A stretch of 63,938 nt of DNA, counting the filler, from Nemertoderma westbladi (lineage: Eukaryota; Animalia; Xenacoelomorpha), in the NCBI GenBank assembly GCA_032718475.1. It is 5 parts of 5 records of this genome, joined end to end, with 100 filler letters (N's around TTAATTAATTAA, not from the genome) between each part and the next. Parts side by side here need not be neighbours in the genome. Positions count along the whole stretch, not along the records: positions 37,726 to 47,834 come from JAUCBJ010004167.1; 4 more parts are not named here. The stretch is one strand, 5' to 3'. The position numbers and the translations under genes were made by a program. This document shows positions 22,549 through 54,787 of this stretch, one piece after another. The notes under the pieces were generated by a model that was not told the DNA's origin, did not search any database, and worked only from the letters and a program-made list of their open reading frames with translations. Position 1 is the first letter of the stretch. Each line of letters starts with the position of its first letter.

Positions 22549-22648
22549 NNNNNNNNNNNNNNNNNNNNNNNNNNNNNNNNNNNNNNNNNNNNTTAATTAA
22601 TTAANNNNNNNNNNNNNNNNNNNNNNNNNNNNNNNNNNNNNNNNNNNN
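22549..22648. other. Artificial contig-join spacer
   Basis: N44-TTAATTAATTAA-N44 (stop codons in all six frames). Confidence 0.97.
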
Positions 22649-25058: not shown

Positions 25059-26315
25059 ATGACTTCCGATGTCGACAACAACGACCCTTCGTTGCAATTC
25101 GCCAATTTCAAACAATTGGATCACACGATATCCTGTCCGATTTACACATCTATCCTGAAAAGGAAGTCGGGTTGTTCTTCTATTTGTATCAGCGCGGATG
25201 AAGATCTATCCTATTTGGAGGAGGAATTGGGCGATTTGTTGGAAAACGTTAGCCATAGGATGCGGGGATTAGAGCAGGAACGACAGCTGCTGGTCGACTG
25301 GATGGAACACAACGCGCTTTCGGGCAACGACAAACACCTACTATCCGATAAATCATTTACAAATAAACTGATCCCCATTAAAAAGAAAATCAAAACGGAC
25401 GTTCAGAGTAAATTAAAAGTAAATAAACATCTTTATGATTCTGAAATCTCTAGTCTTGAGTTACCAATCTCACGATTTTGGAGCGAAGTTAATGAATTTT
25501 GTCGGGATATAACTAGCGAGGATTGCGGAGTTCTTGAGAATTTATTAAAATCGTCTCGTAGCCGCGAATCGGACGAACGCAGCGATAAGGACAGTTCGCT
25601 TTGTTTAACGGCGTTCGCTAAATCCTGGATCGGAGACCCGAACGCGTCGCAAACTAAACCCGGGAAACATTTCCCGTCCAAATCCAACGGGTTTAATTCG
25701 TTGCACGAGGATTCGACGAGACTCGGGCGACTCACCGTCGAGCTGCTGCAGTCGCTCGTGAGCGACAAGTCGAAACTATTGGTAGCCTCGACAACCGGCG
25801 ACAATCAACACCCTTCGAAACAACGACTAGCACACGGGATTTCCGCGAGGCATTCGTCTACGTTGGAACACAGAATCCGGGACGAACTGATTACCCAGGG
25901 TTTTCTGGATAGCGACAGCGAGAGCGAAGAGAAGACGGCCGAGCACAAAGAGAACCCATTCGTGGGCGAGCTTAATCGGTTGAAACGCGAGTGGGAGGCG
26001 TTGCAAGGGAACAAACGAGAGCTGGTTGGCCGCGCGTTGGACCTGGCGCAGACTGAGTGTCGGAGGAGTCAGCTAAGAGATACTGGATCCCTATTGGACG
26101 ACGAGGTTCTGGAACATTACTCCAAGACGATAATCGCCAAACAGCGTAAGAAACCGTTGAGTAAGAAGGAGGTGGACATGGCGTGGAAGTCGTTACGAGA
26201 AAGGGAAGCGGTTTACCGGTTGGTCGATTGTCTCACGAGTAAATCGTTGAAGTCGTCGACGCAGAGTATTTCCGACACTAAAACCATAAACCGTGCAATC
26301 AATAGCAATAGCTAG
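25059..26315 (+). CDS. TADA3: Transcriptional adapter 3 (Ada3/NGG1; SAGA/ATAC HAT module), single exon, 418 aa
   Basis: Colinear match to recalled human TADA3 blocks: LQF.NFKQLDH..CP.YT.IL, FWSEV..FC.DITSE, LEHRIRDELI.QGFL and RKK...KKE.D.AWKSLRERE. Confidence 0.9.
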   Translation: MTSDVDNNDPSLQFANFKQLDHTISCPIYTSILKRKSGCSSICISADEDLSYLEEELGDLLENVSHRMRGLEQERQLLVDWMEHNALSGNDKHLLSDKSFTNKLIPIKKKIKTDVQSKLKVNKHLYDSEISSLELPISRFWSEVNEFCRDITSEDCGVLENLLKSSRSRESDERSDKDSSLCLTAFAKSWIGDPNASQTKPGKHFPSKSNGFNSLHEDSTRLGRLTVELLQSLVSDKSKLLVASTTGDNQHPSKQRLAHGISARHSSTLEHRIRDELITQGFLDSDSESEEKTAEHKENPFVGELNRLKREWEALQGNKRELVGRALDLAQTECRRSQLRDTGSLLDDEVLEHYSKTIIAKQRKKPLSKKEVDMAWKSLREREAVYRLVDCLTSKSLKSSTQSISDTKTINRAINSNS

Positions 26316-29014: not shown

Positions 29015-32000
29015 ATAGATAGATAGATAGATTTATTTATACATTATGTAAAAACAATAACAAATACACCAAACAATGTACCGGTATAAAGGTATTGTCC
29101 AACATAACATATAGGATTACCCCTAAAGCTTTGCAGCTTATTTCCAAGGGGGTCCTTTATGTTACTTGGTTACAAATACAATATTACACTACGCTAACCT
29201 AAAACCAATATAAAACGTAATTACACTATGTACGTGTACAACTTTACCGAGAGCGTGACAATGCCCGACTCAACGATAAAGATGTAATGTACAGAACAAT
29301 TTATTATAAAACGTAATTACAGTATAAATAGTAAATAATTAATAAACTAATAACTTACTGTAGGACTATTGTACCTATTTTTACATTGCACACGGAGGTG
29401 AGATTTAACTGCAGATTTAAAAGAATGTTGATTATTTAGGTTTTTAATTTCATTAGGCAGAGCGTTCCAATTTTTTATGCCGTTAAAAAAGAAAGTATCA
29501 GATTCAAAGGATTTACAATTCGGGAGGTAGAAGTTTGAAGCACTAGCTCTGGTACTGTAAGAGTGTGTATCGCGTACTCTGTTGAATTTTTGTTTTAGGT
29601 AATTGGGACATTTACCATTATACACTTTATGCACATGGTTAAGGCGTAGCTGCTTAACTCTACTATCTAAGTTAAGTAGTCCAGATTCAGAAAAGTCATC
29701 TGGAGTTAGGTGGTGCCTAGGTTTGTAGTCTTTAATAAATCGTACTACTTTATTCTGAGCTACTTGTAATTTACATTTAAGCTGTTTGGTTACGCCTTCA
29801 TACCAAGAAGCGCATGCCTAGTCCATGTGACACTGTATTAAAGAAGAGCAAAGTAACTTGCGGGAGTCGGTGTTCAAACTATTTTTATTTCTGTATAGAA
29901 ACCTAAGCCTACTGTTAACTTTCGAGAAAATATTTTTCACTGTACTTTCTCCTGATAAGCAGTTATCCAATGTGGCGCCTAAATATTTAACTTCCTTTTT
30001 ATTTTCAATCTTATGTCCATTACTAGTGACTTCAAACTTAGTTACCTTCTTTAACTTTCTTTTGGAACCAAACAAAATACTTTCAGTTTTACCGTAGTGA
30101 ATGGATAGCTTATTATCAACCAACCACTCATTACAGGATTCTAGAACTGCACTTAACTTTTGGGAAATATGGATAGGATCTTTATGAGAGAAAATAAGAG
30201 CATTGTCGTCGGCATATAAAATGAGTTTAAAATCGGGATCTATACTACTTATCATATCATTTACATAGCATACAAAAAGCAGAGGACCTAATATACTACC
30301 TTGCGGTACACCACAGGTAATCTCTTGTACAGTAGACTGCGATTTGCTAATGACTACGACTACAGTTTGACCTCTGTCTGACAGGTAGGACTTGAACCAG
30401 TCTATAGAACCTACACCCATCAGGCCTAACTTACCAAGCAGAATTTCGTGATCTACAGTATCGAAAGCCTTTTGTAGGTCCAACATTACCATACCAGTAT
30501 ATAAACCCTTTGCGTTATTACATCTAATTGTATCAGTTAAGTTAATAAGGCAGGTGTCTGTAGAATATGATTTACGAAAACCGGACTGAAGTTCATAGAT
30601 CAGATTTAGCCTACTAAGATGTGCCTCCAGCTGTAGAAAAACAGAACGTTCTAGAATTTTAGATACAATACTTAAGATACTAACAGGTCTGTAATTACAG
30701 GGTTCTACTTTACTATTCTTTTTATACAGAGGAACAACCTTAGCTAATTTCAGTTCGTCTGGTACTACATTATCTACGATAGAGTAATTAATAATAAAAG
30801 TAATAGGCACTTTAAGTACTTCAGCACCATCCTTAAGAAAACGGGCAGGTATTAGGTCTAGACCGGTACTTTTTGAGGCTGATAGGCTAAGTAGATTTTT
30901 AAAAACGAAATCCTCAGAAACGGGTTTTAAAAATAACTTTTCTGAATTTTGTAACTTTTCTAAATAAAAATTATTTAGAGTTTCGGACCCTATACTATAT
31001 TTATTACTTGATAACGGTAACTTCTTAACTAAATTAGAGGCAACATTAGTAAAATAATTATTAAATAAATTACTAACTAGAGTATGATCATGAATCAGCT
31101 CACCGTTATCTTGCAGAACAATATTCAATTTAGATTTAAGGTTTTTATAACCTAAAGATTTTAGGGTAGACCATAGACTTTTTGGATTATCTTTATTCTC
31201 ACTTATTTTGTTGTACAAATATTCAGATTTAGCTTTTTTTATTTCCCGTTGGACAAGGTTTCTATATTTGCAGTAATTATTATAATCAGCTAAAACACGG
31301 TATTTCCTAAATTTATACAAATAGTTATCTCTTTCTCTGATATTACTAAGAATACCCGAGGTCATCCAGGGCTCAGTGCGTTGTTTAAGACTAATTTCTT
31401 TAATTGGTGCTACAGTATTAAGTGCCTTTAAAAATATATCTTTAAAAACAGTGTACGCAAGGTTAATGTCAGCGGCCTTAAAACAGGGTTCCCAGTCAGA
31501 ATTAACTAACAAACTTAAAAAGCGTTCCTTGCTGTAATTTTTCATAGACCTAACTGTTACTGTTTTATGATCCCCGAAAAAAGATTTTTGTGTCTTTCCC
31601 TACGATTAAAAGCTAAATCACATCGAATGTACGTACAGACACCACCACCGTGTCTGTCCCTATCCTTACGTAAAACTACGTAATTATCAATATAAATTTC
31701 TCCATCAGAAACACTATCATCGAGCCAAGTTTCAGAGATTGTTAAAACTGCTGGGTTGGATTTATTGATTAAAATACGAATTTCGGAAAGTTTTGGAAGC
31801 AGAGATCGTGCGTTTAAGTGCAAAAAATGCAGACCTTTTTTCTTAAAAAAATTAAAAGTTTCACTCTCAGCATCACTTGGAGTTTGCAGAGGCGATGTGA
31901 GAAATGAATCGTCGGTTTCTGATTCTAAAATTGTATCATGAAAGGGAAGTTCGGTAAAAATACAGCTATTGCAGAGAAAACTTGGTTCAAGATTGTTTCT

Positions 32001-32480
32001 GGTGGAGAATAAATTACTGCGTTTCCTACGGTAACATTTTAAATGTACAAATGTGTCACAACTCTCGCATTGGACGATCTTACTCCGAGAGTTTGTTCCT
32101 CGTTGACAGACGGGACAGTTGATCTCCGGGGCCCGCGTCCTGCTGGGTCCTGGGTTGGTCTCAATATCCCCAGCCAGAGACAGTAGACAGAGTTTAGCGA
32201 TTAGGCCTCTAGATCGTGGAGAGGAGACCCAAGATCTTCTTCCCCGACGAGAGCAGTAGAGGCTAAATCCACTCGTCGACCACATCTCCGTCGATTCGGC
32301 GCGGCAGTTCGAAACGGTAGCGACAGGGTGTTCCGCAAACCAGTCCAATACGGGTATTGGGTGGGTTGCAGGGTTACCCCGCGGATCGGATGGTTCTGCC
32401 ACAACGAAACGACCCAGAACGATGAAAACTGTGGAGATTAAGAGCGGGGACATTGTGCTGTCTGGCTGTAGTCTGACTCA
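29015..32480 (-). mobile_element. Near full-length CR1/L2-group LINE: 2A-like peptide, PHD finger, APE (internally deleted), RT; (TCTA)n tail
   Basis: GDIETNPGP; CPVC..CESC..H.KC..CNSC PHD; HLNARSL, SETWL and GGGV APE motifs with the C-terminal half missing near 31595; [20 protein letters not shown] and YADD; premature stop at 29818. Confidence 0.92.
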
Positions 32481-37625: not shown

Positions 37626-37725
37626 NNNNNNNNNNNNNNNNNNNNNNNNNNNNNNNNNNNNNNNNNNNNTTAATTAATTAANNNNNNNNNNNNNNNNNNN
37701 NNNNNNNNNNNNNNNNNNNNNNNNN
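37626..37725. other. Artificial contig-join spacer
   Basis: N44-TTAATTAATTAA-N44. Confidence 0.97.
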
Positions 37726-38389: not shown

Positions 38390-39415
38390 ACCAGGAAAAC
38401 CCCCATGGCAAAGTCTTTGCATGGTTTTGTGCTTTCTTGTTGCTAGACTATTGTTGATTGACAGACATTCTTACATATTAACAGACAGTTTTTGCGCGGG
38501 AAGGTTCAAACTTTAAAGGCAATTATCTCGGCATCGCATTTTTTCCTTTTTAAATAACTACTCCTCCGCAATTGTTCAACCAAATCTCATGACTTTAGTC
38601 GCATTCGAACAGGTTTCGGGAGTTCTTTAACATTCATCTTATCGAATTTAGAAAAAAACTTCATATTTCATGAATAGCTGATTTTAATCAAAAAAATTAA
38701 AATTAATTTATTTAATTAATTAATTTTTTATAATTAGCTAATTAAAAATTATATAAGATAAAATTTGTAGACTCTATCCTGCTGAATCCAAAAAAGTTGA
38801 TTTCAAGAAATTTGGACCAAGATTGAGGAACTAGTAGTGTTTTTAGTTAAATTCTAAATTCCGCCGCCAGGCGCTAGGGGGAGGCCAAAAATTTTCTAAT
38901 TTACGTTTGGAGACTATATGCTGCGACGATAAAATTGTTAAATTAAACTATAACCCAAAGTAATTGCTATTTCAAAAAAAAAGGCCAGTGGGGGGGATAC
39001 CCCCCCCCCCCCCCCCCCCCTTAAGAGAAATATGTTATATGTATTGTATTGACAATAGTAATAATAATACTTAAAGGGGGGGGGGGGGGGGGGCTATAGG
39101 CGCAATCTATGTTGATTTCACACACACAAGCACACCCCCCACAGTGGATAAATACACCCAATGGGCAACCTGATTTTGACAACAGCCCGAATTATGTACC
39201 TTGTCGTTGCCGGGTTACCCTAATAATTATCCCTACCATATTTTATAATTGGCTATAGGTATAATATATTATTCGAGCCAACAGTTTATTAAATAACAAC
39301 ATAGTTACAAAACATACTATAACATATATAATTAATTTAAATTTATGAGGAATACTGAACTTGAGTAAAACTTTAATTGCCTAGAATAAAAGGCAGAGTA
39401 ATATTGAATTATTCA

Positions 39416-42400
39416 ATGGCGCGAACAAAACAAAGCAAAAAGGGCAAGTCAAAATCAAAAAAGTCATTCGAAATGGTTTCTGAGAATCCTCCAGATGACA
39501 ACCTAACTCAATCAGCTCCAGATAATTCATCTTTAACCAAAGACCATGACGCCCAGAAAACTGAATCCGCCCCTGTTAGTTTACTCCAAAAGATATCAAC
39601 CCTAGTTGGCTCACAGCAAACTGAATCGGCCCATATTGGTTCACTGCAAACTGAATCGGCCCCAATTGGTTCACAGCAAACTGAATCGGTCCATATTGGT
39701 TCACTCCAAACTGAAACTGAATCGGCCCCAATTGGTTCACTCCAAACTGAATTGGCCCCAATTGGTTCAGAGCAAACTGAATCGGCCCCAATTGGTTCAC
39801 AGCAAACTGAATTGGCCCATATTGGTTCACTCCAAATTGAATCGTCCCCAATTGGTTCACAGCAAACTGAATCGGCCCATATTGGTTCACTCCAAACTGA
39901 ATCGGCCCCAATTGGTTCACAGCAAACTGAATCGGCCCTTATTGGTTCATTCCAAACTGAATCGGCCCATATTGGTTCACTCCAAACTGAATCGGCCCCA
40001 ATTGGTTCACAGCAAACTGAATCGGCCCATATTGGTTCACTCCAAACTGAATCGGCCCCAATTGGTTCACAGCAAACTGAATCGGCCCCAATTGGTTCAC
40101 TCCAAACTGAATCTTCTGCTGCAGACTCAGCATCACAACCAACACCCCAACAGTCTAAAAAGTCCTATTCATTTTCATCAGGACCAATAGAATGGGAAAT
40201 GGAGAATGGCGAGTGGGTCGGACATTCAAAGATAGAGGAGAAACCTGACCCACAGCCACAGCCACTAAATCCAATCAAACAAGCTAGTGAAAAAGGAACT
40301 AGAGGAAAAGGAATTGACGATATGAAATCGGGAGATGCCTACAGGAAGAAGGAATCAGATGAGCAGCCAGTAACCAAGGCCAAGGGATACTACAGACGGA
40401 GAAGCATTGATGATAATGTCAGTAATGTCAGCATTGACAGTATAGACAGAAACATTGATGATGATTCCATTACAGGAATCCGGGACATTGGTGTTGGACT
40501 TCAAACTAGACACAATCATTTCAAAGAAGATGTCAGAAAACTGAACAATGAAACAAATACCGGTATTAATAATAAAAATAAGTTTGGAGAGCAAATCGAA
40601 AAAATGCCGAGGTATTATAGAGGTGGAAGTTTCGATGATAATGTTAGTGACATTAGTGAAATAAATGGCAGTTTAAATAAAGAATTAAATGAGTTAGAAT
40701 TAGGATTAGATGAGTCCGTTGAGTCAGATTTAACTACAACAGAGCCAAAAGAAGATTCAATTACATCATTATTACAAAAAACAAAAGATAGTAAAGAAAT
40801 AATTGAATACCTAAGAAAGATAGACCCAACAGATGATAAGGGAAGATTTGTAAACAAAATGAAAAAGAATGCCATTATTATCTGCAGCAGAAAAGATATT
40901 GCCATTGTAAATAAACTTGAAGAAAGTTTAGGAAAGTATGAAATCATCTTGAGAACACTGTCATCTGGTGTAGATATTGATGAAAAAGGTCATGATTATA
41001 AATATATGAAGGACTGGATGATCAAATGGATGGGTTACAAAGTAGAGAAGATATGCCAACCTGTAGTAGTTTTGATCACTCCAAATAACAATAAAGCATA
41101 TGGAAAAATAGATAACAGTTCAAATTGGTGCGAAAGGTTTACACAATTTGCTTTAAATACAGGAAATTACGTTATTGTTTTGCGTGCAAATATCCATAAT
41201 ATTCATCACATACACGAACAATCTACAACCGCTGCAGCATGTGAATGCTGGATAGAGGAACTCCTCCTAGGTCGGCAGTCAGCCACACTGTCATTAACTG
41301 ATAGAAGTAAAGACAGCTGGGAAAAGGGTGTGAAAGAGATAGCAAATAAAATATCTATCATTCAAGATGCGGCAGAGCAAACGATTCCTTATGCGATTAA
41401 AGTCGAGACAGGGAATGTCAAAAATGGAGGAACAGATTCGACTATTTGGTTTGAAATAATTGGAAGCAAAGCAATGTCTGGACAATTTCAACTACAAAAG
41501 ACATTCAGTGGAGGAAGCAAACAGACTTTTAACATACAATCAATAGATCTAGGAGAGAATATACTAAATATGATTGTAAGAAGTGAATATGATGGTAAAA
41601 AGGCTAAATCATGGTACTTACAAGGTGTAAACATTCGAGACATTTATAGGAAAACTAATGTTACTTTCGAGGTTAATAGGTGGTTATCAAAAGATCGTGA
41701 TGATGGGAAGTGTATCAAAGTATTCTATCCTGTCGATGTGATTAATGCGCTATTCAAAGTAGTACTTGCTGGTAATGCAGGGGGAGGGAAGAGCAGTATA
41801 TTGCAGAGATATACTAATAATGTGTTTGGTGAAGAATATGTATCAACAGTCGGTGTAGACTTTGCAACTAAGGTTTTACATGTTAAAGGAAGCAATGCTA
41901 AACTGCAGATATGGGACACTGGTGGGACAGAGAGGTATCGAGCCATGTCCGCATCATACTATAGAGGAGTTCATGGTGTATTTATAGTATATGACGTCAC
42001 TCAGAGAGGCACTTTTACCAGTGTACTTAAGTGGTATAATGAGTTACAACCTTTTATACATTCGGATGTAAAAATAGTATTGATAGCAAATAAATGCGAT
42101 CTAAAAAATGTTAGAGAAGTGTCAACTAAAGAAGGTACAGAATTGGCAAGAACCTTTAACATGAGTTATTTGGAAACAAGTGCAAAGAACAATACCAATG
42201 TAGAAGAAATGTTTAAGATGATAACAGAATCCATGCTAGTTGAACAAGGCAGAACTATTATAACGGAACAGCTGCCAGCAGAAATTCTATCAAGGGGGCC
42301 AGATGCCATAAATGCTTTTAAACTGGCATTGAACAATGGAACAAAACCAATATTTAGAACACGTCTAATGCTCGTTGGACAGGATAGGGCCGGCAAGACA

Positions 42401-45232
42401 AGTTTGAAGAATTCCTTAATGGGTGAAAAGTTTAATCCAAAGGAGATTTCAACAGATGGAATTACTGTTAATGATGACTGCGAAATAGATGTCAGTCATT
42501 GGCAACCATGGCAACCAAACACCAATGAGGAATATAATAAAACTAAAAATATAGAGAATGAGTATTATACAAGATTGGCATATTTAGTTGCAAAGGAAAT
42601 TATTAGAAAGAAACAAGAATTTTTAAGTAAAGTAAGTAGAGTTTCGAATAATGCCTCAGAAAGTATAAAAGAAGAAATAAAAAGTAGCTTAAAAAATGAT
42701 GAAAATCAAGAAATCCAATATGGAGAAAATCATGAAAAAGAAAACAGCCAATCAAGTGAAAGTGAATCGTCAATTACAGTAGATGGTGGACTAGTATCTA
42801 CTCAACAACTTAGTAGATTATTGGTAGAAAGTCGGGTAAAGGAGGAAGATATATATGACAGTAGTGTAGATATACCTGACAGAGTTAAGGAGTTACTGAT
42901 TGAGATGTTAGACCAGGAACAACAAAGCGAGATTTATACAGAAATAGCTGAAGAAAGTGATAAAATTACACTAAGTATTTGGGACTTTGCTGGGCAATCA
43001 GTGTATTATGCAACACACCAGGTTTTCCTAACATACAGGGCAGTATATGTGATAGTGTTCAATCTAACAGATGACCTAGAAGCCCCAGCGCAAACACTTC
43101 AACGAAGAGGACCTTGTGCTACTGATGATGATCCAGACAGTCAATTTGTGCATCATGAGATGCGAAATATAGATTTTATTGACTTTTGGATGAATTCAAT
43201 TTATGCTTTTACATCAAAACAGACTGGAAAACAACGGAAATATATTGGTAAGGATGGATATGTAGAAACACCCCCAATATTTATTGTAGGAACTCACAGA
43301 GCTAGTTTGCATTCTATACCAGAGGAGCAATATAAAATGGCAAGACAGAAGTTCAAATTAATTAAAGAACTGATTGCTAGGAAATCTTATGCAATGCATC
43401 TTGTACGTGAGTGTTATGCAGTGGAGAATCATATAGAAAATGGATCAGATAAAGAAGTTATCAAACTTAGACAACATATTCAGGATATAGCCAAACAACA
43501 GCAGTATATGGGAGAGTTAATGCCATTACATTGGTTAAAATTCGAAAATGCCATGCAAAAAATACATCATCAAAATTTTTCAAATATTGATAAAGTCCGT
43601 GATATTGCAAAGAATGTTGGAATTACATCAGACACTACTTTCGTGACAATGCTAAATTTTTACCATGATTTGGGCAATATCATTTATTATGGAGGTTTGG
43701 GCGCAACTGACGACAGTTTGAGAAACACTGTTATACTCAATCCACAGTGGCTGATAGATGTGTTCAAAAAGATCATAACCATAGCTGATATTGACAATGA
43801 GTGGGTAGCACTGAGACCATATTGGGAGAATCTAGACGATAATGGGATACTAGACGAACCATTACTGGACCATATGTGGAACTCCATAATCTCACAAAAA
43901 ACAACTTTAATTGCATTAATGGAAAAGTTTGATCTAATGTGTGAGAAATTTCCACCGAAACAAAGAAATATTTTACCATACAGATCGTTTTATATTCCAG
44001 CCAGGATGAAAATTCCAAACAAAAAGATTTTTATTCCTCATTCCCAAAACGATATTATTTTCCACATAATATTTGATGGATTCCTCCCGGAAGGTTTATT
44101 TAATAGATTGTCAGTGAGGGCTGTCAAATGGTCCCAAGAACAAGGCAGCTCTGAACCAAAACTGTATCACAGAGTAGTTCGGTTTTATGTAGATGATGAA
44201 CACGATTGTGTTCTTGAAATGGCACCTATTGGACTGGCTAGAATCAAGGTTAGTGTAGTTCGAGTTAGTGTCGTAAGCGATGATGGAGAAATATCTCTAA
44301 ATAAGGGAAAGACTCCAAAACCTGAAGCTTTTGCTGCTGTGAGACACTTTATAGAGTCCACCCTAAATGATTTCAAGCATTTATGGGTTAAGAATATATC
44401 ATACAAGACAGCCGTTGAATGCCCTTGTGAAAGAGAATGTGAATTTCACAAAGTAGAACACTGTCCTGAAATGGAATGTATTCATTTCTTAGACATGGAA
44501 GATTCATTGGAAAAGAAGGTTATGTTATGTGAACATAACCGTGTGAGTACACATAAATTTAGGCAGTGGGTACCGCAGGAAAGTCCAATACCATCTGAAC
44601 CACAGGAGAAGATAGGCAAAACTAGAGATAGTAATAAAGAAATATTCTTAAGTTATAATTGGAAGATTCAAGAAAAGGTAAAACAGATGAAAGAACATTT
44701 GGAGAAACAAGGTATTACTTGTTGGATGGACATTGGGCAGATGGGTGGTGGAGACAAGCTATTTGGTCGAATCGATGAAGGTATCTCAAATTGTAAAGTG
44801 TTCATACCTTGTATTAGTAAAGGATATCTAATATCGAGATATTGTGTTACTGAGGGCCAATTGGCTTTTGAAAGAAAAAAGAAAATAATGCCATTATTAT
44901 TCGAGAGTCAAAAGACCTGCTGCAGTAATGCAGGTTGGCCCCCCAAAGGGGAATTGGCTATACCATTCTCTGGTACAGTATTTACGGAGTTTTGTGACCC
45001 ATTTAGAACTCATGGTAACTATAATAAACATAATAAATTAGACAACGATGTGAGATTTGCTCAGCTCGTTCAAAACATTAAAATGCATCTAGAAACTGAT
45101 GAACTTGGTTGTTTTGACAAAAAGAGTTTTCTGCAAATATCCGATAAACAGGGCCTTGGCAATGAAGCAAAAAATGGATTCGATGAAGGAATCGCAATTC
45201 GGAAAGCAAGTCGATTTTGTGCCATATTATAA
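39416..45232 (+). CDS. Single-exon Roco-family protein: repeats, TIR-like, PLAT, Rab-like GTPase, Roc, COR, TIR, CaaX (~1938 aa from the first ATG)
   Basis: Uninterrupted 5.8-kb ORF. PLAT (Y.IKVETG..GGTD..WYL..F.VNRWL) ~41390-41731. Rab (GNAGGGKS, TVGVDF, WDTGGTERY, YYRG, NKCDL, ETSAK) ~41750-42240. Roc (GQDRAGKTSL, STDGI, WDFAGQ..YYATHQVFL, VGTH) ~42350-43480. COR (P..WL.FE, FYHDLGNII, VILNPQWLIDVF) ~43500-44420. TIR (IFLSYNW, CWMD..QM.GG, S.YC..E..LA) ~44638-45090. Ends CAIL*. Confidence 0.9.
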   Translation: MARTKQSKKGKSKSKKSFEMVSENPPDDNLTQSAPDNSSLTKDHDAQKTESAPVSLLQKISTLVGSQQTESAHIGSLQTESAPIGSQQTESVHIGSLQTETESAPIGSLQTELAPIGSEQTESAPIGSQQTELAHIGSLQIESSPIGSQQTESAHIGSLQTESAPIGSQQTESALIGSFQTESAHIGSLQTESAPIGSQQTESAHIGSLQTESAPIGSQQTESAPIGSLQTESSAADSASQPTPQQSKKSYSFSSGPIEWEMENGEWVGHSKIEEKPDPQPQPLNPIKQASEKGTRGKGIDDMKSGDAYRKKESDEQPVTKAKGYYRRRSIDDNVSNVSIDSIDRNIDDDSITGIRDIGVGLQTRHNHFKEDVRKLNNETNTGINNKNKFGEQIEKMPRYYRGGSFDDNVSDISEINGSLNKELNELELGLDESVESDLTTTEPKEDSITSLLQKTKDSKEIIEYLRKIDPTDDKGRFVNKMKKNAIIICSRKDIAIVNKLEESLGKYEIILRTLSSGVDIDEKGHDYKYMKDWMIKWMGYKVEKICQPVVVLITPNNNKAYGKIDNSSNWCERFTQFALNTGNYVIVLRANIHNIHHIHEQSTTAAACECWIEELLLGRQSATLSLTDRSKDSWEKGVKEIANKISIIQDAAEQTIPYAIKVETGNVKNGGTDSTIWFEIIGSKAMSGQFQLQKTFSGGSKQTFNIQSIDLGENILNMIVRSEYDGKKAKSWYLQGVNIRDIYRKTNVTFEVNRWLSKDRDDGKCIKVFYPVDVINALFKVVLAGNAGGGKSSILQRYTNNVFGEEYVSTVGVDFATKVLHVKGSNAKLQIWDTGGTERYRAMSASYYRGVHGVFIVYDVTQRGTFTSVLKWYNELQPFIHSDVKIVLIANKCDLKNVREVSTKEGTELARTFNMSYLETSAKNNTNVEEMFKMITESMLVEQGRTIITEQLPAEILSRGPDAINAFKLALNNGTKPIFRTRLMLVGQDRAGKTSLKNSLMGEKFNPKEISTDGITVNDDCEIDVSHWQPWQPNTNEEYNKTKNIENEYYTRLAYLVAKEIIRKKQEFLSKVSRVSNNASESIKEEIKSSLKNDENQEIQYGENHEKENSQSSESESSITVDGGLVSTQQLSRLLVESRVKEEDIYDSSVDIPDRVKELLIEMLDQEQQSEIYTEIAEESDKITLSIWDFAGQSVYYATHQVFLTYRAVYVIVFNLTDDLEAPAQTLQRRGPCATDDDPDSQFVHHEMRNIDFIDFWMNSIYAFTSKQTGKQRKYIGKDGYVETPPIFIVGTHRASLHSIPEEQYKMARQKFKLIKELIARKSYAMHLVRECYAVENHIENGSDKEVIKLRQHIQDIAKQQQYMGELMPLHWLKFENAMQKIHHQNFSNIDKVRDIAKNVGITSDTTFVTMLNFYHDLGNIIYYGGLGATDDSLRNTVILNPQWLIDVFKKIITIADIDNEWVALRPYWENLDDNGILDEPLLDHMWNSIISQKTTLIALMEKFDLMCEKFPPKQRNILPYRSFYIPARMKIPNKKIFIPHSQNDIIFHIIFDGFLPEGLFNRLSVRAVKWSQEQGSSEPKLYHRVVRFYVDDEHDCVLEMAPIGLARIKVSVVRVSVVSDDGEISLNKGKTPKPEAFAAVRHFIESTLNDFKHLWVKNISYKTAVECPCERECEFHKVEHCPEMECIHFLDMEDSLEKKVMLCEHNRVSTHKFRQWVPQESPIPSEPQEKIGKTRDSNKEIFLSYNWKIQEKVKQMKEHLEKQGITCWMDIGQMGGGDKLFGRIDEGISNCKVFIPCISKGYLISRYCVTEGQLAFERKKKIMPLLFESQKTCCSNAGWPPKGELAIPFSGTVFTEFCDPFRTHGNYNKHNKLDNDVRFAQLVQNIKMHLETDELGCFDKKSFLQISDKQGLGNEAKNGFDEGIAIRKASRFCAIL
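39617..40113 (+). repeat. Coding 30-bp tandem repeat, 16 units of QTESA(P/H)IGS(L/Q)
   Basis: Counted from the translation; one unit has an in-frame 6-nt insertion (QTETES). Confidence 0.97.
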
Positions 45233-46115: not shown

Positions 46116-47834
46116 AGGCTGTACTAGGTTAAAATATAATATAAAATACGGGACTAATACTGACTAATACTATAAAGGCTGTACTAGGTTAAAATATAAT
46201 ATAAAATACGGGACTAATACTGACTAATACTATAAAGGCTGTACTAGGTTAAAATATAATATAAAATACGGGACTAATACTGACTAATACTATAAAGGCT
46301 GTACTAGGTTAAAATATAATATAAAAGATGGGACTAATACTGACTAATACTATAAAGGCTGTACTAGGTTAAAATATAATATAAAAGATGGGACTAATAC
46401 TGACTAATACTATAAAGGCTGTACTAGGTTAAAATATAATATAAAATACGGGACTAATACTGACTAATACTATAAAGGCTGTACTAGGTTAAAATATAAT
46501 ATAAAATACGGGACTAATACTGACTAATACTATAAAGGCTGTACTAGGTTAAAATATAATATAAAAGATGGGACTAATACTGACTAATACTATAAAGGCT
46601 GTACTAGGTTAAAATATAATATAAAAGATGGGACTAATACTGACTAATACTATAAAGGCTGTACTAGGTTAAAATATAATATAAAATACGGGACTAATAC
46701 TGACTAATACTAAAGGCTGTACTAGGTTAAAATATAATATAAAATACGGGACTAATACTGACTAATACTATAAAGGCTTTACTAGGTTAAAATATAATAT
46801 AAAATACGGGACTAATACTGACTAATACTATAAAGGCTGTAATAGGTTAAAATATAATATAAAATACGGGACTAATACTGACTAATACTAAAGGCTTTAC
46901 TAGGTTAAAATATAATATAAAATACGGGACTAATACTGACTAATACTGACTAATACTGACTAATACTGACTAATACTGACTAATACTGACTAATACTGAC
47001 TAATACTGACTAATACTGACTAATACTGACTAATACTGACTAATACTGACTAATACTGACTAATACTGACTAATACTGACTAATACTGACTAATACTGAC
47101 TAATACTGACTAATACTGACTAATACTGACTAATACTGACTAATACTAAAGGCTGTACTAGGTTAAAATATAATATAAAATACGGGACTAATACTGACTA
47201 ATACTATAAAGGCTGTACTAGGTTAAAATATAATATAAAATACGGGACTAATACTGACTAATACTATAAAGGCTGTACTAGGTTAAAATATAATATAAAA
47301 TACGGGACTAATACTGACTAATACTATAAAGGCTGTACTAGGTTAAAATATAATATAAAATACGGGACTAATACTGACTAATACTATAAAGGCTGTACTA
47401 GGTTAAAATATAATATAAAATACGGGACTAATACTGACTAATACTATAAAGGCTGTACTAGGTTAAAATATAATATAAAATACGGGACTAATACTGACTA
47501 ATACTATAAAGGCTGTACTAGGTTAAAATATAATATAAAATACGGGACTAATACTGACTAATACTATAAAGGCTGTACTAGGTTAAAATATAATATAAAA
47601 TACGGGACTAATACTGACTAATACTATAAAGGCTGTACTAGGTTAAAATATAATATAAAATACGGGACTAATACTGACTAATACTATAAAGGCTGTACTA
47701 GGTTAAAATATAATATAAAATACGGGACTAATACTGACTAATACTATAAAGGCTGTACTAGGTTAAAATATAATATAAAATACGGGACTAATACTGACTA
47801 ATACTATAAAGGCTGTACTAGGTTAAAATATAAT
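46116..47834 (+). repeat. 60-bp satellite with an internal (GACTAATACT)n expansion at ~46928-47147; runs into the contig end
   Basis: Unit AGGCTGTACTAGGTTAAAATATAATATAAAATACGGGACTAATACTGACTAATACTATAA. Confidence 0.97.
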
Positions 47835-47934
47835 NNNNNNNNNNNNNNNNNNNNNNNNNNNNNNNNNNNNNNNNNNNNTTAATTAATTAANNNNNNNNNN
47901 NNNNNNNNNNNNNNNNNNNNNNNNNNNNNNNNNN
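47835..47934. other. Artificial contig-join spacer
   Basis: N44-TTAATTAATTAA-N44. Confidence 0.97.
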
Positions 47935-54687: not shown

Positions 54688-54787
54688 NNNNNNNNNNNNN
54701 NNNNNNNNNNNNNNNNNNNNNNNNNNNNNNNTTAATTAATTAANNNNNNNNNNNNNNNNNNNNNNNNNNNNNNNNNNNNNNNNNNNN
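54688..54787. other. Artificial contig-join spacer
   Basis: N44-TTAATTAATTAA-N44. Confidence 0.97.

Follow-up and report, generated by a model that had tools for sequence, protein, structure and literature searches.

Three Roco proteins of Trichoplax that carry a Ras-like domain in front of ROC (TRIADDRAFT_62404, 62498 and 57945) were described in 2014, and the passages of that paper drawn on here propose that ROC-COR is a dimerisation device and Ras the output (PMC4104024). TIR proteins with ROCO domains, one of them MyD88-like, occur in Aplysia, and the accessible portion of that report, in which NHR appears in a figure legend, suggests a GTPase-linked TLR cascade in this animal (PMC9334734). 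Bacterial AP-GTPase-COR proteins have variable C-terminal effectors that include TIR, according to the portion cited of PMC8195603, while the ROCOs of brown algae are treated as candidate immune receptors, and a TPR-ROCO-TIR protein is listed for Chondrus, in an excerpt of PMC11378527. The part of PMC5714945 used here describes a bacterial Roco as a dimer with GDP or without nucleotide and as a monomer with GTP. In searches of an open-access library, outside which most subscription papers lie, neither a PLAT-Rab-Roc-COR-TIR protein nor Rab decoys in Rocos were found.

An earlier note on DNA of Nemertoderma westbladi described a Roco protein as a candidate new signalling system. Its account of a Roco without kinase or LRR that has its own Rab, a TIR and a C-terminal CaaX is supported, and the TIR retains the catalytic Glu. 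The protein does not represent an entirely new system, and the repeated capture of different Rabs by Rocos is the larger finding.

The gene and its domains

The Nemertoderma Roco gene is one uninterrupted ORF at 39416-45232 (+) of the window, which is the whole stretch of DNA analysed (63,938 nucleotides). The ORF encodes 1938 aa plus a stop and is preceded by an in-frame stop at 39374; it is real, and the intact frame of about 1938 aa given in the earlier note is confirmed. A single 2394-bp contig bridges PLAT, Rab and Roc: it runs from within the linker to within Roc (40207-42600) and shows 0, 1 and 1 differences from the ORF in DNA runs X1, X2 and X3, respectively (two samples from two studies, one possibly the assembly's own source). 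Because this contig covers 40207-42600 in three runs, an assembly chimera is ruled out at the PLAT-Rab-Roc junctions. A chimeric ORF, which the earlier note named as a refuting case, is thus rejected for this stretch; none of the pieces listed from the DNA runs spans the whole ORF. Of the six sequencing runs listed for the sequence none is of RNA, which has no bearing on whether the gene is expressed. An exact-sequence lookup in a protein collection gave no match for the Roco protein or for the Ada3 ORF of the same window.

The Ada3/TADA3 gene, at 25059-26315 (+), is a single uninterrupted ORF of 418 aa, near full length. Since that gene is likewise one uninterrupted ORF, the single-exon state, which refers to the coding sequence only, is not peculiar to the Roco gene and was dropped as a special feature; many coding regions of the N. 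westbladi genome may lack introns. The window is rich in repeats, and its other long ORFs include reverse-transcriptase and protease fragments. A LINE-like element at 29818-32453 (-) carries an ORF with a PHD finger and, after it, one for reverse transcriptase, and a 60-bp tandem array (46116-47834) lies just downstream of the Roco gene. The joins at 22549-22648, 37626-37725, 47835-47934 and 54688-54787 each consist of 44 N, 12 bases and 44 N.

The features of the Roco gene are as follows.

39416..39475 (+), basic N-terminus, aa 1-20, with 8 K/R and 1 acidic residue
39620..40105 (+), 16 tandem repeats of ten residues (30 bp), aa 69-230, by sequence count
40112..40855 (+), charged low-complexity linker, aa 233-480, by composition; no Pfam match
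40856..41380 (+), alpha/beta block, aa 481-655, possibly a degenerate TIR; ESM Atlas lead 0.88
41390..41719 (+), PLAT/LH2 domain, aa 659-768; Pfam E 1.4e-10
41756..42235 (+), Rab-type G domain, aa 781-940; Pfam Ras E 2.8e-61
42251..43465 (+), Roc G domain, aa 946-1350; Pfam Roc E 1.8e-45
43523..44467 (+), COR-A (aa 1370-1519) and COR-B (aa 1546-1684); Pfam
44420..44536 (+), Cys/His cluster, aa 1669-1707, conserved in the family
44642..45115 (+), C-terminal TIR (TIR_2) with Glu1813 at the catalytic position; Pfam
45218..45229 (+), CaaX motif CAIL at the protein end

The basic N-terminus and the 16 repeats were found as the earlier note had them. A degenerate extra copy of the repeat is present at aa 49, and in the DNA the tandem array extends over 39558-40113. 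The first six residues (39416-39433), which we take to match the N-terminus of histone H3, could represent a histone mimic, a captured 5' end or chance. The same six-residue start is present in 0 of 270 other retrieved proteins, and a search of solved structures with the first 21 residues gave no match. The linker that follows the repeats is likely disordered, judging from its composition. It holds two similar short segments (aa ~325-343 and ~400-418, window 40380-40670), both reading YYR..S.DDNVS, a pairing which suggests an old internal duplication.

The block at aa 481-655 may be a degenerate TIR, but the divergent TIR-like block of the earlier note is not confirmed. Pfam gave no match, a 55-sequence TIR profile (HMMER) ranked the block 142 of 901 against shuffles, and the score of its hhalign comparison with the TIR profile was equalled by 23 of 100 shuffles. 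A single-sequence AlphaFold model of aa 479-658 was of low confidence (pLDDT 38), as was that of aa 468-945 (pLDDT 33). A fold search with the former gave no match at Z >= 8; all scores were below 6, and TIR at Z 5.4 was tied with unrelated alpha/beta folds. The ESM Atlas returned TIR clusters only, at 0.87-0.88, under its 0.9 mark. If the block is a TIR, Phe occupies the position of the catalytic Glu. Two word-seeded, length-limited searches found nothing that resembles aa 481-655: that with aa 477-945 (proteins of 822-2345 aa) returned seven matches, all carrying a Ras-family domain and with 28-37% coverage, and that with aa 440-775 (proteins of 1065-3392 aa) returned seven LOXHD1-like proteins.

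The PLAT/LH2 domain agrees with the earlier description, and its nearest retrieved relatives are LOXHD1-like repeats, the best at 31-38%. The Rab domain that follows matches Rab11B and Rab1A equally well (E ~1e-46); by similarity it is Rab11/Rab1-like and not assignable to a single subfamily. As a complete Ras-family domain N-terminal of Roc, it has the arrangement that defines Rocos with a Ras-like domain before Roc. G1, G2, G4 and G5 are retained and the domain may therefore still cycle, but its G3 reads WDTGGT, with Thr838 aligned with the catalytic Gln of Rab11B and Rab1A. The complete Rab-like domain of the earlier note is thus of full length, as claimed, and yet departs from a canonical Rab GTPase in the catalytic Gln of G3.

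The Roc domain has the motifs G1 GQDRAGKT (988), G2 (1012), G3 WDFAGQ (1189) and G4 THR (1293), and COR lies directly after it, as expected of a Roco. COR-A is clear (E 1.8e-18, 47-57% identical to five relatives) and COR-B is weak (E 0.001, below its Pfam cut-off, 43-52% identical to the same relatives), which bears out the COR that had been claimed. With a profile of the family, bacterial Rocos are recovered at E 1e-29 to 1e-18 and LRRK2 at ~1e-13. The C-terminal TIR is also confirmed, with the Pfam match to TIR_2 at aa 1743-1834 (E 4.9e-19). Its best match among solved structures is Cat1 (E 8e-8), whose Glu is aligned with Glu1813, and in this residue the domain conforms to the TIR NADases of the SARM1 and bacterial type. 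The Glu is kept in 25 of the 28 relatives, those in which the motif was found. Neither LRR nor kinase is among the 15 Pfam matches of the protein, in agreement with the earlier note, nor are ankyrin or WD40; the LRR and/or kinase domain that characterizes LRRK, DAPK and MFHAS1 is therefore missing.

A conserved parent family and recurrent Rab-Roc fusion

A search with aa 950-1900 retrieved 109 proteins, of which the top 28 are ~1070-1310 aa long, are 33-44% identical to the Nemertoderma Roco and come from echinoderms, hemichordates, molluscs, an annelid, a nemertean and four unnamed records. All 28 have Death and TIR domains, 23 have Neuralized and 25 have a Cys at position -4; the Saccoglossus protein among them is 'neuralized PATS1' (NP_001161599.1). 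The back half of the protein therefore matches a conserved invertebrate family, and the claim of a new signalling system was overstated. In the alignment the Nemertoderma Roco and the family have in common the Roc motifs, a long G2-G3 insert, the Cys/His cluster, TIR and CaaX. The insert spans 177 aa in the Nemertoderma Roco and 159-205 aa in the 13 relatives measured. The ~170-aa insert, the Cys/His cluster and the CAIL end pointed out in the earlier note are all present, but each is family-wide and was rejected as a novelty. The Cys/His cluster presumably binds zinc.

No match to Neuralized was found in the Nemertoderma Roco, and in the alignment the Rab fills its position. A Death domain is likewise without a match, and a clean alignment gap lies between COR and TIR, where the spacing is 28 aa in comparison with ~124 aa, Death domain included, in the relatives. 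Two Roc-COR trees, both from quick searches and with long branches, place the protein in a starred clade with this family (34 rows, support 97, in the first; 18 rows, support 99, in the second). Both starred clades also take in echinoderm Rocos of other architecture, and the place within the clade differs by tree, being beside ambulacrarian rows (89) or outside all others (95). Sequence comparison thus identifies the protein as a rearranged relative of an invertebrate Neuralized-Roc-COR-Death-TIR-CaaX family, in which PLAT-Rab has taken the place of Neuralized and Death has been lost. Since it falls in a clade with the family and is without Neuralized and Death, it is a derived relative and not a member by architecture. 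The MyD88-like ROCO protein of Aplysia probably belongs to this family, going by the portion cited of PMC9334734. Conserved invertebrate TIR families (ecTIR-DC) are referred to in PMC6321704, and judging from the excerpt used here their list may already include the parent family.

More distant members of the Roc-COR group add glycosyltransferase, NACHT, TPR, Macro, RIG-I-like or kinase domains, accessory domains which by sequence follow an immune-type pattern. Related Roc-COR proteins were also observed with a RIG-I-like helicase (P0034), with Macro, Death and TIR (P0031) and with CARD, fibronectin-III and TIR (P0143).

For the fusion itself, aa 655-1854 were searched against 1.84 billion representatives and the best 150 matches were taken, 147 of which had not been retrieved before. 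The full architecture is absent from all 263 retrieved relatives, and PLAT occurs with neither COR nor Rab in any of the 263. The new architecture claimed in the earlier note thus holds for the exact combination, but not for its parts or the tandem G domains, which have precedents. Rab and COR occur together in 4 of the 263, to which Pfam added a fifth, so that five retrieved proteins have a Rab before Roc (P0063, P0064, P0208, P0247 and P0136). Together with the Nemertoderma Roco they require four changes on a 27-row Roc-COR tree, a count that uses all rows (a grouped table which gives one change leaves out nine ungrouped rows), and a single clade of the six is rejected (p-AU 2e-40, with long branches present). 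Based on these comparisons, Rab-Roc fusion recurs in separate Roco lineages and with different Rabs. Since the five other fusions come from gene models in databases, some may be annotation fusions.

In the coral Montipora foliosa, P0063 and P0064 are 91% identical over the 1006 residues of Roc-COR-Death and 33% identical in the Rab part. The best Rab match is Rab11 for P0063 and Rab8 for P0064, and the latter holds almost the whole of Rab8, with its hypervariable tail as far as the point of fusion. All six Roco-fused Rabs, two of which were entered by hand, depart from the G3 consensus, compared with 43 of the 88 other retrieved Rab domains (p 0.027). This departure is weak evidence, because so many background Rab domains are also without the consensus. 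The other fused Rabs are more damaged than that of the Nemertoderma Roco, including in G1 or G4.

A second Rab-Roc copy in Nemertoderma lies on a 2787-bp contig in runs X1-X3. It differs at 72 of 287 bases (25%) from the Rab (41900-42186) and at 32 of 328 (10%) from the start of Roc (42273-42600), a difference in divergence with p 5e-7. Two length changes are listed, both multiples of three. Among the base differences listed, Roc has 11 of its 13 at third codon positions and Rab 15 of its 30 (p 0.045). Relaxed constraint, or homogenisation of Roc by gene conversion, could also account for the faster change of the Rab. Variation of the captured domain among close paralogs, which marks integrated-decoy receptors, is thus found both in the coral pair (Rab8 and Rab11) and in the second Nemertoderma copy. 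Loose ends at 42365, 42366, 42402 and 42411 in runs X1-X4 point to at least two more diverged Roc-like sequences, one of which sits on a 5351-bp contig in X4; one may be a parent of the Neuralized type. Contig depths disagree several-fold between X2 and X3, which come from one sample, and were therefore not read as copy numbers.

Proposed working and rival explanations

Bacteria modify host Rabs, and plant NLRs use integrated decoy domains. The Nemertoderma Roco may be a prenylated, membrane-anchored Roco-TIR immune sensor, in which the captured Rab, with PLAT, is the input, Roc-COR the switch and TIR the output, a reading which is given about an even chance. CAIL would be geranylgeranylated and, with PLAT, would tether the protein to a membrane. 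The Rab would be slow at hydrolysis and could be either a bait for microbial or host factors that bind or modify Rabs, or an address for a membrane. Its engagement would change the nucleotide and oligomer state of Roc-COR, in either direction, and the change of oligomer would cluster or release the TIR for NAD+ cleavage or TIR-TIR signalling. The TIR is now joined to COR with no Death domain between them, and since Death is lost, TIR is the only recognised output of the protein. A wider and distinctly tentative version is that invertebrate Rocos are unrecognised NLR-like receptors which have repeatedly captured different Rabs as decoys against microbes whose target is Rab-controlled trafficking, wired in this case through Roc-COR to a membrane TIR NADase.

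The Rab might instead be a working GTPase, either an in-cis activator of Roc-COR, along the lines of the earlier note and by analogy with LRRK2, which Rabs recruit, or a signalling output switched by Roc-COR. Its full length, its intact G1, G2, G4 and G5, its matches to Rab11B and Rab1A at E ~1e-46 and its retention in the second copy of the same organism all agree with this, but the catalytic Gln is replaced, the remaining Roco-fused Rabs show more damage, the near-identical coral bodies carry different Rabs, and between the two Nemertoderma copies the Rab changes faster than Roc. LRRK2 binds Rabs through its armadillo region; Pfam gives no such match in the Nemertoderma Roco, which further counts against a working Rab. 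For the Rab as output, a model is in print for Trichoplax in the passages cited above (PMC4104024). On balance a working Rab is rather unlikely.

A non-immune scaffold for trafficking or development, in which PLAT, Rab and CaaX localise the protein and TIR is a plain interaction domain, is improbable, even though three of the modules are membrane-related and the parent family, with members in echinoderms, hemichordates, molluscs, annelids and nemerteans, is conserved. A housekeeping role could underlie this conservation between phyla. Retention of the catalytic Glu in TIR, the extra diverged Roc copies in the same runs and the immune-type accessory domains of related Rocos all argue against a scaffold. 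If the gene were a silent or decaying chimera, formed recently by retroposition or shuffling, this would explain the absence of coding introns and would suit the reverse-transcriptase ORFs elsewhere in the window, but such a reading has to contend with an open frame of 5.8 kb, with a Rab-Roc order common to a copy that is 10-25% diverged and whose listed length changes are multiples of three, and with the 11 of 13 listed Roc differences at third codon positions. Ada3 in the same window is also a single uninterrupted ORF, and a silent chimera is highly improbable.

If the Rab of the sensor proposed above is a decoy, the integrated-domain sensing of plant NLRs extends to animal Roco GTPases. The protein also provides a natural single-chain test of communication between Rab and Roc-COR, which is studied in trans for LRRK2, with TIR rather than a kinase as a simple enzymatic read-out. 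The conserved and little-studied Roco-Death-TIR-CaaX family of invertebrates is a likely immune signalling node.

Comparison with known systems

The Neuralized (NHR) Rocos are like the Nemertoderma protein in Roc-COR, the insert, the Cys/His cluster, a TIR with MDIGQMGGGD and the Glu, and CaaX; the Nemertoderma Roco is ~700 aa longer, its front being made up of repeats, the alpha/beta block, PLAT and Rab. The Montipora proteins P0063 and P0064, together with P0208, P0247 and P0136, resemble it in having a Rab with altered G3 before Roc-COR, but they belong to separate Roc-COR lineages and are without a PLAT or TIR match. P0063 and P0064 are Rab-Roc-COR-Death models whose Rabs derive from Rab11 and Rab8, respectively. 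With the Trichoplax Rocos it has tandem G domains in common, as well as the absence of a listed kinase; in the passages of PMC4104024 drawn on here PLAT and CaaX are not mentioned, and TIR is listed for some Trichoplax Roco. The three Trichoplax proteins were not recognised among the matches retrieved here.

Farther afield, plant NLRs with integrated decoys are a proposed functional analogy, in that they pair an NTPase switch with TIR as the output and with a host domain that is captured and can be exchanged, whereas the Nemertoderma Roco has a Roc-COR GTPase in place of NB-ARC, is without LRR and has a putative decoy. The Roc-COR core is common to LRRK1/LRRK2, DAPK1, MFHAS1 and the bacterial Roco of C. 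tepidum; unlike them, the Nemertoderma Roco has a TIR output and a Rab in cis.
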